Origin: an uncultured Gammaproteobacteria bacterium
GTDB taxonomy: Bacteria; Patescibacteriota; Microgenomatia; Levybacterales; GWA1-39-11
Length of the DNA: 64,000 nt
Assembly: GCA_964450885.1 (NCBI GenBank)
Contig: CAYVFE010000002.1
Coordinates: forward strand, 15,192 to 79,191
Direction of reading: 5' to 3'
Each line of letters opens with the position of its first letter. Position 1 is the first letter of the stretch. The position numbers and the translations under genes were made by a program. Positions 2,422 to 38,736 of this stretch are shown one piece after another. Under the pieces are notes generated by a model. That model worked only from the letters and a program-made list of their open reading frames with translations. It was not told the origin of the DNA and searched no databases.

Positions 2422-2588
2422 TACGTCAAATCAAGAATATCGTCTTCGCAAAAAAGTAAACTTATTTTGCTGCGACATTTATTCTGATTCTCCTTATTTC
2501 GCCCCGCTAAGCGGGACGACAGGTCTAGAAGTAGATTTTATCAAATATAATAGTTATTTCCTAGACAAGCGGTGGTAAAATAGGGCAC

Positions 2589-4398: not shown

Positions 4399-4416
4399 CC
4401 CGCTTGCGGGATTAAG
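4399..4416. terminator. GC-rich hairpin AATCCCGC-ttgc-GGGATT between ydjM-like (+) and tRNA-Leu (-); T-run on the minus-strand side
   Basis: Perfect 7-bp inverted repeat followed on the minus strand by ACAGATTTTAT. Likely terminator for the minus-strand tRNA transcript and/or the convergent plus gene. Confidence 0.35.
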
Positions 4417-4492
4417 TAAGGAGGAATAGACGAGAAACCGAAGTTTTTTGATTTTTCAAAAACGAAGGTGTGAAGTCTTAGTTCCGACGTAG

Positions 4493-27883: not shown

Positions 27884-27988
27884 TTTGACTGTCGTAAATT
27901 CGATAGAATTTACGAAATAAGGAGGATGAGGATAAATGTTGAAGATCCGATCTATCGGATCGAAAACGATATCCTGCATCCGACGCTT
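27884..27988 (+). repeat. tRNA-leader structured element, copy A (immediately 5' of tRNA-Val TAC)
   Basis: Hairpin CGTAAATTC/GAATTTACG, conserved core AAATAAGGAGGATGAGGATAAATGTTGAAG, hairpin ATCCGAT-ct-ATCGGAT, conserved tail CGAAAACGATATCCTGCATCCGACGC. See finding. Confidence 0.6.
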
Positions 27989-31231: not shown

Positions 31232-31330
31232 AGCGTCGGAACGCAGAATGATGCTTTCGATCTGTTTAAAATCAGATCTTCAGCTTTCATTCTCTTCCTC
31301 CTTATTTCAAAACTCTAAAGAGTTTTGACA
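31232..31330 (-). repeat. tRNA-leader structured element, copy D (5' of tRNA-Gly on the minus strand)
   Basis: Minus-strand sense: TGTCAAAACTCT-tt-AGAGTTTTGAAATAAGGAGGAAGAGAATGAAAGCTGAAGATCTG-attttaaa-CAGATCGAAAGCATCATTCTGCGTTCCGACGCT then the tRNA. Confidence 0.6.
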
Positions 31331-31584: not shown

Positions 31585-31683
31585 TCGTCGGAATGCAGGA
31601 TAGCGTTTTCGAATTTAGCTAAAACTAAATTCTTCAACATTCATCCTCATCCTCCTTACTTCAAAATACTTAGTATTTTGACA
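31585..31683 (-). repeat. tRNA-leader structured element, copy C (5' of the tRNA at 31512-31584 on the minus strand)
   Basis: Minus-strand sense: TGTCAAAATACT-aa-GTATTTTGAAGTAAGGAGGATGAGGATGAATGTTGAAGAATTTAG-tttta-gCTAAATTCGAAAACGCTATCCTGCATTCCGACGAG then the tRNA. Confidence 0.6.
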
Positions 31684-33930: not shown

Positions 33931-34027
33931 CTACGTCGGAATGCAGGATAGCGCTTTCAATCCGATAAATCGGATTTTCAGCCTTAATCCTCATCCTCCT
34001 TACTTCAAAAAGCTGATGCTTTTTGAC
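33931..34027 (-). repeat. tRNA-leader structured element, copy E - inverted, abutting the 3' end of tRNA-Leu(TAG)
   Basis: Minus-strand sense: TGTCAAAAAGC-atca-GCTTTTTGAAGTAAGGAGGATGAGGATTAAGGCTGAAAATCCGAT-tt-ATCGGATTGAAAGCGCTATCCTGCATTCCGACGTA. Same architecture as copies A-D but not followed by a tRNA on its own strand. Confidence 0.55.
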
Positions 34028-35775: not shown

Positions 35776-35798
35776 CATCTTTGCGAAATCAGTCGCCC

Positions 35799-36275
35799 TT
35801 AGGCGAGTGCGTAACCATGCCCGCGTCGGTACGAGCGTTCCCTGCGGTCCAGACGGGCCTTCCTGCGCTTGTTGCGCGAGTTCTCAGTCCTGTTGTGGAC
35901 CAGATGATTGAGGGCGGTAACCCTCACAGCCTTGCTGCCAAGCGTGGTGCGTGTCTCGATGACGAGAATGCCGGGTTCGTGCACGAATGCACCTGAACGG
36001 GACTGCGGCTTGCGCAACCTGACGATCTTGTACGCCACGAGCGGTTCGTTTCCCTCGAGAGGGAAGAGCGACAGTGCGACCATCTGGTCGTTGACTGGGC
36101 GCTCCCATACCGTCAGGTCCACACGGACACGATGGACTTCCCAGTTGCCCTCCTGAGCGGGTACCACCTCATAGGTGATGCCGTCCCCGAATATCTTCGG
36201 CAGGATGCCCCCTTCGACGACCGCCGAAAGGTTGTTGATGGCAACGGGAAGATCCGTAAATGGCCTCTTTGCCAT
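35799..36275 (-). CDS. Hypothetical 158-aa protein with an Arg/Lys-rich C-terminal tail, encoded in a compositionally foreign (GC-rich) island
   Basis: Good SD (GGAGGTGTAGAAAATGGC). Non-repetitive, beta-rich-looking sequence ending ...NRTENSRNKRRKARLDRRERSYRRGHGYALA. Other-frame ORFs in this block look like GC-driven noise. Confidence 0.4.
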   Translation of the reverse strand: MAKRPFTDLPVAINNLSAVVEGGILPKIFGDGITYEVVPAQEGNWEVHRVRVDLTVWERPVNDQMVALSLFPLEGNEPLVAYKIVRLRKPQSRSGAFVHEPGILVIETRTTLGSKAVRVTALNHLVHNRTENSRNKRRKARLDRRERSYRRGHGYALA

Positions 36276-36540
36276 TTTCTACACCTCCAGGTGTACTGAA
36301 CTCTGGCGTTGACGATAGGATGGTGCGCCATGCGGCGCAGGGTCTTTCTGACCGGAAAGTTGATGATTGATGTCTTTTATTCCCGGAGAGTTTTTTGCCG
36401 GGAAAACCAATATCCCAATAACACCTCTTTCTTTTGGGGCTGGATTTGTTTGGTTCCCCAATTCTGAGTATATAGTCTATACCCAGAGTAGGAGAACCAA
36501 ATAATAATTTCGCAAAGATTTTAATGTGCAAAAAGACAAT

Positions 36541-37821: not shown

Positions 37822-37870
37822 CTTCATTGTCTAGGTTATTTTATTCTGGTAAAATACGAATGCTTTAAAA

Positions 37871-37969
37871 GTCAAAAAGCATCAGCTTTTTGAAGCAAGG
37901 AGGATGAGGATAAATGTTGAAGAATTTATCTCTGGTAAATTCGAAAACGATATCCTGCATCCGACGCAA
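37871..37969 (+). repeat. tRNA-leader structured element, copy B (5' of tRNA-Val GAC)
   Basis: GTCAAAAAGC-atca-GCTTTTTGAAGCAAGGAGGATGAGGATAAATGTTGAAGAATTTA-tctctgg-TAAATTCGAAAACGATATCCTGCATCCGACGCAAG then the tRNA. Confidence 0.6.
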
Positions 37970-38043
37970 GGACGGTTAGCTCAGTTGGTTAGAGCGTCGC
38001 ATTGACATTGCGGAGGCCACTGGTTCGAATCCAGTATCGTCCA
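37970..38043 (+). tRNA. tRNA-Val (anticodon GAC)
   Basis: GGACGGTTAGCTCAGTTGGTTAGAGCGTCGCATTGACATTGCGGAGGCCACTGGTTCGAATCCAGTATCGTCCA. Confidence 0.75.
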
Positions 38044-38100
38044 CTAAAGCAGTCTGAGCGTCGTGCCCCAAGGGCACTTGCCGACACTCGGTGGCGCATA

Positions 38101-38141
38101 CACATTGCGGAGGCCATAGGCATCGATCCAGTATCGTCCAC
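38101..38141 (+). pseudogene. Degenerate duplicate of the 3' half of tRNA-Val(GAC)
   Basis: CACATTGCGGAGGCCATAGGCATCGATCCAGTATCGTCCAC versus the tRNA's GACATTGCGGAGGCCACTGGTTCGAATCCAGTATCGTCCAC. T-loop destroyed, acceptor 3' strand identical. Confidence 0.5.
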
Positions 38142-38163
38142 AAGTGTTTGATATACTAGAATC

Positions 38164-38736
38164 ATGACCCGAGATGGCGCATATCAAACACTCACCGTAT
38201 ACGTACAGTCCCAAAACCTCATAAGGCATCACCTAGCTACAGAGGTTGCAATGCGCTCACTTGCGCAGCACTTATCAAAATCAAAGAATCAACTACTGGA
38301 CATAGAGAAGTGGGGAATAACAGGCCTATTACATGATGCTGACTATGAACTGACAAGAAAGACTCCAGAAAAGCACACCTTGTATCTTGAGGAAAAGCTC
38401 GGAGAGCAAATCCCGAAAGACATAATGTATGCTATAAAGGCGCATAACTATGCTTACACTAAAATCGAACCAACGAGTCTCATGGATTGGGCGCTTTATA
38501 CATGTGATGAGCTGACAGGATTTATAGTTGCTTGCACACTCGTCCTCACGGATAAAAAAATCAAGAGTCTATCTACCGATTTCGTACTAAATAAGATGAA
38601 TGATAATGCATTCGCAAAAAGCGTGAACCGTGAACAGATAAAACTTTGCGAGAAAAGTCTGGGAATTCCTCTTTCCGAGTTCATTATGATAGTCCTTAGC
38701 TCAATGCAGGCTATTGATACTACGCTTGGACTTTAG
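38164..38736 (+). CDS. HD-domain phosphohydrolase
   Basis: HD motif region (ITGLLHDADYE) and additional His/Asp residues. 190 aa. Confidence 0.55.
   Translation: MTRDGAYQTLTVYVQSQNLIRHHLATEVAMRSLAQHLSKSKNQLLDIEKWGITGLLHDADYELTRKTPEKHTLYLEEKLGEQIPKDIMYAIKAHNYAYTKIEPTSLMDWALYTCDELTGFIVACTLVLTDKKIKSLSTDFVLNKMNDNAFAKSVNREQIKLCEKSLGIPLSEFIMIVLSSMQAIDTTLGL

Follow-up and report, generated by a model that had tools for sequence, protein, structure and literature searches.

A decayed partial copy of a valine tRNA gene and hairpin-flanked tRNA cassettes nested in related Levybacteria loci

The window analysed here is a stretch of 64,000 nucleotides (nt) of contig CAYVFE010000002.1, and the locus that concerns us lies on its forward strand, where an intact tRNA-Val(GAC) gene is followed by a degenerate copy of its own 3' part and then by the gene of an HD/HDIG-type hydrolase (Table 1). 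A promoter-like site found by consensus scanning probably drives the tRNA transcript, and a structured repeat of about 83 nt lies between this site and the tRNA. The neighbouring genes are, in order, those of trigger factor, a DUF5660 protein and three small open reading frames (ORFs), then the tRNA and the hydrolase, followed by DUF5665, threonyl-tRNA synthetase, IF3, the ribosomal proteins L35 and L20, and PheST; relatives keep the order tRNA-Val, HD, DUF5665, thrS, infC, rpmI, rplT, pheS. The hydrolase has 1513 homologues, which are named as proteins of Levybacteria or Patescibacteria and which some sources call phosphohydrolases; the genome to which the window belongs is Levybacteria-like (Patescibacteria). 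We will examine the degenerate copy in the light of related loci, in which complete copies of the same tRNA are nested inside older ones, and we will argue that it is probably what is left of a tRNA gene that was replaced from within.

A repeat search recovered 37998-38044 and 38095-38141 as an ungapped direct repeat of 47 nt, 81% identical and offset by 97 nt from start to start, so that the copy runs from the anticodon stem to the 3' end of tRNA-Val(GAC), on the plus strand and downstream of the intact gene. When the tRNA is aligned locally, with gaps, to this copy, the score is 57, a value that none of 5000 shuffles of 38045-38160 reached (maximum 26). The copy is the only degenerate tRNA-Val(GAC) in the window, and partial copies of the other nine tRNAs, sought across the same 64 kb, gave none (best background score 29). 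A reading made from the sequence alone had already noticed the duplication, its identical acceptor strand and its broken T-loop, all of which we confirm, while its measurements call for adjustment: the copy begins at CGCAT, the 5' strand of the anticodon stem, at 38095 and not at 38101 (about 6 nt further 5'), the spacer between the two copies is exactly 50 nt (38045-38094) and not about 55 bp, and the hairpin described in this spacer exists with a loop of 3 nt, CAA, instead of caag. The acceptor 3' strand CCAGTATCGTCCAC is unchanged between the intact gene (38031-38044) and the copy (38128-38141), as is the block ACATTGCGGAGGCCA; the T arm has gone from ACTGGTTCGAATCCAGT to ATAGGCATCGATCCAGT, and the anticodon loop reads TACACAT where the intact gene has TTGACAT. 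The copy is recognised as a tRNA by neither ARAGORN nor Rfam, even at E<=10. L001 of our comparison set, which was assembled independently from this sample, agrees with the window without a difference across 501 nt of the region, and the repeat is therefore no accident of assembly. Clearly homologous to a functional tRNA but deprived of the cloverleaf, and not conserved among close relatives, the copy has the features of a tRNA pseudogene: 38095-38141 is a real, decayed and non-functional fragment of an earlier copy of tRNA-Val(GAC).

Dead 3' halves that belong to different tRNA lineages have a similar lesion in the T-loop, in which GGTTCRA has become GG(T/C)ATCRA with an A after T54, and the 5' strand of their T stem is altered too (sites in Table 1).

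Table 1. Positions of the features discussed, in the window or, where a locus number is given, in related loci of the comparison set
Feature	Locus	Position	Strand	Basis or remark
Promoter-like site TTGTCT-17 nt-TAAAAT with TG	window	37827..37855	+	consensus scan
Structured leader repeat, ~83 nt, ends 2 nt before tRNA	window	37886..37969	+	nhmmer, RNAalifold
5' flank CCTGCATCCGACGCAA, like the 5' arm CCTGCCCGAC... of relatives' cassettes	window	37954..37969	+	flank comparison, 83 contexts
Intact tRNA-Val(GAC), CCA not encoded	window	37970..38043	+	ARAGORN; Rfam tRNA model, 69.8 bits
3' flank CTAAAGCAGTCT, like the cassette 3' spacer (C)AAAGTCCAGTC of L115 and L020	window	38044..38055	+	flank comparison
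GAGCGTCG, equal to 37992-37999 (D-stem 3' strand and start of anticodon stem)	window	38056..38063	+	sequence reading
GC-rich 31-nt segment with two small hairpins, between GAGCGTCG and CGCAT	window	38064..38094	+	sequence, fold
Hairpin GTGCCC-CAA-GGGCAC	window	38063-38077	+	sequence
Hairpin GCCGA-CAC-TCGGT	window	38080-38092	+	sequence
Degenerate copy, anticodon stem to 3' end of tRNA-Val(GAC)	window	38095..38141	+	repeat search, shuffles; ARAGORN and Rfam negative
HD/HDIG-type hydrolase gene	window	38164..38736	+	weak HD and HDIG matches
T-loop lesion	window	38114-38127
T-loop lesion	L091	~2400
T-loop lesion	L004	~2606
T-loop lesion	L002	~85
GC islet, 60% GC	window	35787-36450 (~35.8-36.4 kb)
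ORF of the GC islet, 158 aa	window	35799-36275	-
~83-nt repeat, strong copy	window	27909-27986	+	nhmmer
~83-nt repeat, strong copy	window	31233-31313	-	nhmmer
~83-nt repeat, strong copy	window	31586-31667	-	nhmmer
~83-nt repeat, strong copy	window	33933-34012	-	nhmmer
~83-nt repeat, strong copy	window	37886-37967	+	nhmmer
~83-nt repeat, weak copy	window	2424-2501	-	nhmmer
~83-nt repeat, weak copy	window	4414-4489	+	nhmmer
tRNA-like gene with replaced anticodon arm	L087	1932-1983
tRNA-like gene with replaced anticodon arm	L122	161-225
tRNA-like gene with replaced anticodon arm	L123/L125	475-544
tRNA-like gene with replaced anticodon arm	L149	587-644
tRNA-like gene with replaced anticodon arm	L108	~321-356

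With the HD-hydrolase protein as an anchor we fetched 170 related loci (L-numbers designate them), compared about 80 distinct tRNA-Val(GAC) contexts adjoining the same hydrolase gene, found extra pieces with a tRNA-Val(GAC) profile and scored 76 distinct contexts strictly. The tRNA adjoins the HD gene throughout the group, in either orientation, and one uninterrupted tRNA-Val is kept at every locus. The tRNA, with any nested pieces, stands at the same intergenic position on the strand opposite to the hydrolase in L008, L014, L025, L033, L038, L041, L045, L110, L113, L115, L126, L130, L138 and L141.

Among the relatives for which upstream DNA is available, L168 is the closest (its HD protein and that of the window are 84% identical). 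Its order is plain, with the same promoter, the tRNA and then 40 nt that lead to the HD gene, and it lacks the partial repeat; the window is longer than this locus by about 104 nt ahead of the tRNA and by about 90 nt behind it. The other relatives carry different tRNA-Val fragments or none, and the idea that the repeat might be a conserved structural feature is not borne out by this comparison. Among 75 distinct tRNA-Val(GAC) sequences, the nearest to the remnant is the adjacent intact gene, and the two share TGCGGAGGCC and CCAGTATCGTCCA, which are found in no other tRNA-Val of the set.

Extra pieces of tRNA-Val around the intact gene were found in 18 of the 76 strictly scored contexts, to which L003, L121, L126 and the window are to be added. 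Their placement is regular, the 5' pieces lying upstream (17/17) and the 3' pieces downstream (8/8), always on the strand of the intact gene (28/28). A complete tRNA-Val(GAC) is inserted into another one, either after A37 of the anticodon loop, that is at 37/38 (L004, L005, L091, L115, L121, L032), or in the D arm (L020, L126, L143, L138), and in L091 and L143 the nesting is three deep. These tRNA-bearing inserts measure 98-109 nt, and their two ends pair, outermost bases included, in a closing helix of 8-11 bp, the commonest being CCTGCC(C/T)G...CAGGCGGG, with CCTGCC...GGCGGG as its ends. Short hairpins without a tRNA occupy the D loop (L003, L091), the T arm (L020, L100) or position 37/38 of a leftover copy (L017). 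The junctions of the nested loci are exact (L005, L020, L115, L126 and others). When the three outer pieces of L020 are rejoined, they give the intact tRNA of L021 to the base, and the rejoined outer pieces of L126 equal both the intact tRNA of L025 and the inner tRNA of L115; one tRNA sequence is therefore a plain gene at one locus, the invader at another and the victim at a third. The ends CCTGCC...GGCGGG recur in the D arm, the anticodon loop and the T arm of tRNA genes as well as in HD genes, in the manner of a miniature inverted-repeat transposable element, but a target duplication was seen at none of the exact junctions and no transposase in the loci examined.

Several further features distinguish the nested loci. 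The pairing between leader and trailer of the tRNA has a median of -13.9 kcal/mol where fragments lie nearby and of -5.9 kcal/mol at plain loci (p=2e-6). The cassettes hold about 17 nt ahead of their tRNA and no promoter, while a conserved promoter stands upstream of the outer 5' half; the motif TTTTATT(C/T)TG(G/A)TAAAAT recurs there and upstream of the tRNA of L168, so the inner tRNA would be expressed from the promoter of the gene that it interrupts. The interrupted outer genes appear to be mostly dead: once rejoined, those of L004, L091, L100 and L003 are no longer called tRNAs, while those of L005 and L126 still are. A neighbouring copy or fragment accompanies 21 of 84 distinct tRNA-Val(GAC), and among the other annotated tRNA types of the same loci there is none except for one tandem tRNA-Glu pair; the effect looks specific to tRNA-Val(GAC). 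Replacement of the allele can also be clean: L006 and L007 encode an identical HD protein and carry unrelated tRNA-Val(GAC) alleles in a cleanly swapped segment of about 128 nt with no remnant in either; in this comparison (L006 2751-3010 against L007 1-259) the flanks show 2 differences in 79 nt upstream and 0 in 53 nt downstream.

The same kind of insert is found in protein-coding sequence. The HD genes of L128 (2888-2908, 21 nt) and L029 (2882-2953, about 70 nt) hold, at a shared codon position, in-frame hairpins with CCTGCC...GGCGGG ends, and other in-frame GC-rich palindromes lie in the HD genes of L121 (~2630 and ~2762) and L160 (~626), where they add loops like PASPAGG to the peptide. 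As all HD reading frames of the data set are intact, each of these inserts is in frame, which argues that the hairpins are translated DNA insertions and are not removed from the RNA. This bears on the possibility that the window feature and its counterparts are functional RNA, be it a spliced or split tRNA (which would make a new bacterial tRNA intron), a terminator or a structure of the HD 5' leader. Many of the relatives' inserts do lie at 37/38, the canonical position of tRNA introns in Archaea and eukaryotes, and are closed by a helix, and some outer genes are still perfect (L020, L126, L005). We give this possibility hardly any credence, however: same-ended hairpins in HD genes are always in frame, outer copies commonly decay while an uninterrupted tRNA-Val remains at each locus, Rfam finds nothing, and the piece itself is unconserved and absent in L168. 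Bulge-helix-bulge geometry was looked for in the relatives and dropped, the junctions lying at blunt helix ends on inspection, and the inserts fall far short of the length of a group I intron. With neither a ribozyme core in Rfam nor this geometry, and with interrupted genes that decay, the inserts would not qualify as tRNA introns. For the window, a split tRNA, an intron or a tRNA(CAC) pseudogene with a 5' half of its own was likewise discarded, as no complementary 5' acceptor strand lies upstream of the remnant and ARAGORN and Rfam were negative; so was a role as terminator or stable structure, since the fold of 38044-38165 is no stabler than that of shuffles (z = -1.2) and no terminator-like site lies on its plus strand. 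Because of the in-frame HD hairpins, the decaying outer genes, the lack of a ribozyme in Rfam and junctions that are not bulge-helix-bulge, we read the inserts as DNA-level insertions that would kill and replace the old gene.

How far does the window resemble these nested loci? Among 83 contexts, the flanks of its tRNA rank nearest to nested cassettes (L115, L020, L126, L032, L005), and its leader and trailer are complementary and cassette-like, forming a duplex of -15.2 kcal/mol that falls inside the range of nested cassettes; a 3' part of an older copy lies downstream on the same strand. Between the 3' flank and the remnant stands GAGCGTCG, collinear with the main repeat, which is probably the start of the displaced older copy or else an eroded 3' arm; in the relatives, the insertion site between GGTTA and GAGCG is used in L003 and L091, and the one between GGTTAGA and GCG in L020. 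The 31-nt segment that follows has no second copy in the window and no match in viral contigs, and secondary hairpin inserts comparable to it are seen in the dead tRNA copies of L020, L091, L100 and L017, which suggests that it may be a later insert into the old copy.

We thus favour, as the probable though far from certain explanation, that tRNA-Val(GAC) has been repeatedly overwritten at this locus by hairpin-flanked cassettes and that the remnant of the window is the non-functional rest of an earlier copy. A promoter-less unit of 98-109 nt, made of a complete tRNA-Val(GAC) with a short leader and trailer that form inverted repeats, mostly CCTGCC...GGCGGG, would enter the resident tRNA-Val(GAC) gene at its D arm or its anticodon loop. 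The inner tRNA would then be transcribed from the resident promoter and released by the normal enzymes of tRNA end processing, while the split old gene would become dead DNA, free to decay, to gain small hairpin inserts and to be partly deleted. No integrase would take part in this overwriting. In the window, a cassette copy would have landed in, or a copy would have been duplicated into, the lineage's own gene; the old 5' part would later have been lost, and the 3' part would have decayed in its T arm and anticodon loop and been split by the hairpin-rich insert of 31 nt.

That the window passed through a nested state is what we infer from analogy and from the likeness of the flanks, and several observations weigh against it. 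The nested state is defined by an outer 5' piece, which should lie between promoter and cassette, and the window has none: 37856-37969 holds no tRNA-like 5' piece and consists of a 30-nt hairpin region and the 83-nt repeat. The relatives have exact inserts with blunt closing helices; in the window the arms are eroded and the left junction is missing. The 5' flank motif CCTGCATCCGAC belongs to the 83-nt repeat, which precedes other tRNAs too, and its likeness to cassette arms may therefore be coincidental, and the motif CCTGCCCGC (CCTGCC) shows no enrichment in the window, where it matches 8 times against an expectation of 4.5. Some junctions in the relatives are unclean, L013 and L035 having lost a few outer bases and L035 having no arms, and neither an enzyme nor a donor copy of the cassettes was identified. 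Finally, the remnant is sister to the neighbouring gene, which fits self-insertion and simple duplication equally well.

Simple duplication is indeed the rival that deserves most attention. It holds that replication slippage or microhomology produced a plain local tandem duplication of part of the tRNA with its 3' flank, followed by decay, and that no mobile cassette was ever here. The remnant and the intact gene are mutual closest relatives with strings that are theirs alone, as a duplication would have it, there is no 5' half upstream to account for, and CGCAT, with which the remnant starts, recurs in codons 5-6 of the HD gene, where the 18 nt around it resemble the start of that gene (14/18). 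In its most specific form, a duplication from the anticodon stem to HD codon 5 with CGCATA as junction, it was tried and kept only as a rival, since the spacers of the two units are not significantly alike once the shared hexamer is excluded: 376-615 of 5000 shuffles, and 33% of background segments of the window, score as well. The spacer of the first copy does not align to the spacers of the relatives, and the cassette-type flanks and the strong pairing of leader and trailer would be left unexplained. We consider a plain duplication, of some other extent than this specific one, unlikely, but not to be dismissed.

The sequence-only reading had proposed another origin, namely a classical attL/attR scar, in which an element with a tyrosine integrase would have entered the 3' half of the tRNA and later been deleted except for 50 nt. 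The repeat runs from the anticodon stem to the 3' end, the usual extent of an att duplication at a tRNA, and its two copies are sisters, as this origin would require. On the other hand, when the ORFs at about 29.0-48.4 kb, some 9 kb on each side, were searched with Pfam and PHROGs, no integrase, transposase or phage family was found and the named neighbours were housekeeping genes; neither a recombinase gene or pseudogene at the repeats nor foreign DNA between them, where there are 50 nt only, accompanies the direct repeat. Exact scans of 2.9 million viral contigs turned up neither the spacer nor the tRNA 3' half, and a phage or viral origin was rejected with them: CCTGCCCG joined to the tRNA start did give 29 matches there, which are chance ones, the motif being the T arm of a preceding tRNA or unrelated coding DNA. 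Integrase attL/attR chemistry does not produce the upstream 5' halves and the inserts of 98-109 nt of the relatives. The GC island that had been taken to mark an integration site is adjacent to neither repeat; it lies 1.7 kb upstream of the 5' end of the tRNA, beyond three conserved small ORFs, and we do not retain it as part of a repeat-bounded element. It is rather a variable ORF slot with conserved flanks, whose counterpart in L004 holds a different, 25%-identical ORF and which holds none in L005; its 158-aa ORF has no match in Pfam, PHROGs, NCBIfam or PADLOC. We therefore regard an integrase scar as very improbable. What survives of that proposal is the idea of a footprint, left by insertion or duplication of DNA, at a tRNA hotspot, as about one quarter of the related loci carry tRNA-Val fragments, and its passing suggestion of a very small inserted segment comes close to what the relatives show.

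Taken alone, the feature of the window is a dead gene fragment without function, and its importance lies in what it points to, a single-copy tRNA gene that would be serially replaced from within by miniature cassettes of the same tRNA across a lineage of bacteria with tiny genomes. We tentatively go one step further and suggest, as a possibility well short of established, that tRNA-Val(GAC) cassettes of Levybacteria, about 100 nt long, devoid of a promoter and with inverted repeats at either end, form a selfish family whose members copy themselves exactly, and with no duplication of the target, into the loops of the resident gene and are moved in trans. Such an invader would destroy the resident gene, take over its promoter and its function, and become the next target; it might move through an enzyme acting on hairpin DNA or via an RNA intermediate, and the remnant of the window would be one decayed footprint of this process. 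If the cassettes are mobile, they would be the smallest known elements that compensate for their own damage, they would represent mobile DNA without an enzyme of its own, and they would explain the turnover of tRNA alleles. There is also a caution for annotation here, in that half-tRNAs beside a tRNA are not always integrase att sites, and inserts at 37/38 of bacterial tRNA genes are not always introns.

Other features of the region can be described more briefly. In the window, nhmmer finds five strong and two weak copies of the 83-nt leader repeat, each abutting the end of a tRNA. The repeat consists of TTTTGAAGYAAGGAGGATGAGGATAAATGTTGAAGA, a variable hairpin and then CGAAAACGATATCCTGCATCCGACGC, and it ends 2-3 nt from the tRNA, mostly at the 5' end and on the same strand; the exceptions are two tRNA-Leu genes whose acceptor stem is palindromic, where it adjoins the 3' end and runs on the opposite strand. 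RNAalifold predicts a long hairpin with compensatory changes in 8 pairs, and it is this covariation that is conserved between copies and not the reading frame of a small ORF that we considered and rejected. Rfam gives no match to the repeat, and none of the related loci, L168 included, yielded a copy.

A perfect 12-bp inverted repeat (38143-38154 / 38181-38192, -15.5 kcal/mol) pairs the sequence just after the remnant with HD codons 6-10, enclosing the start codon. It is missing in 13 relatives and is therefore a recent, genome-specific change, which possibly arose by a template-switch event. The HD gene has a TATACT-like box 6-8 nt before its ATG, which leaves no room for a ribosome-binding site (38147-38166); the box is kept in L168, L003, L004 and L005, with a TG extension in the window, and suggests that the HD mRNA may be leaderless. 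Directly upstream of tRNA-Val(GAC), some relatives (Table 1) have tRNA-like genes with a 7-bp stem and tetraloop (GTCCGAT-GGAA/GGGC/GAAC/GGAC-ATCGGAC) in place of the anticodon arm; in L122 the acceptor and T arms of this gene look intact.

Our literature searches on nested or hairpin-interrupted bacterial tRNA genes returned only the group I introns of Patescibacteria and archaeal cases, and no bacterial case of an enzyme-less, hairpin-flanked cassette of about 100 nt that brings a whole tRNA into a gene for that same tRNA, so that this mode of tRNA gene turnover is apparently undescribed so far. It does have partial likenesses among known systems. The palindromic elements of Rickettsia and the GC clusters of yeast mitochondria are found within RNA genes and also, with the reading frame kept, within protein genes; to our knowledge neither carries a complete tRNA gene or prefers a gene that it can replace. 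Like the inserts described here, they are non-autonomous, GC-rich hairpins in AT-rich genomes, and they count among the short palindromic mobile elements (PMC4478555). Archaeal tRNA introns occur at canonical and non-canonical positions, and "intron transposition" is reviewed for Thermoproteales (PMC4090602); they too are short, related, helix-forming inserts at 37/38 and in the D and T arms that seemingly move between positions, but they have a bulge-helix-bulge and a splicing endonuclease, whereas here, in a bacterium, the helix ends are blunt, interrupted genes fall into decay and each locus keeps an uninterrupted copy. The tRNA group I introns of Patescibacteria (2026, PMC13011429) are reported to be self-splicing ribozymes at position 35/36 of the anticodon loop; phylum and anticodon-loop location are thus the same, while our inserts have no ribozyme core and have a tRNA inside.

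A 5' fragment of one allele upstream of a different, intact allele has been described for tRNA-Thr(GGU) of the archaeon Caldiarchaeum subterraneum (Sugahara et al. 2012, PMC3293823). There the heterogeneity of the population is ascribed to a mobile element, the intervening 1.8 kb encode a recombinase and the tRNAs have spliced introns. The upstream 5' fragment of a tRNA beside a replacement allele is common to both cases; ours differs in concerning a bacterium and an insert of about 100 nt, with no recombinase and no sign of splicing. The integrative elements that target tRNA genes, such as phages, integrative and conjugative elements and genomic islands, share with the cassettes their target, the restored tRNA and the duplicated fragment that is left over. 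In contrast to them, the cassettes have no integrase and no cargo beyond the tRNA, measure 98-109 nt and bring a whole tRNA instead of a 3' segment, and they have inverted-repeat ends, enter at varying points of the D arm or the anticodon loop and leave 5' halves upstream.

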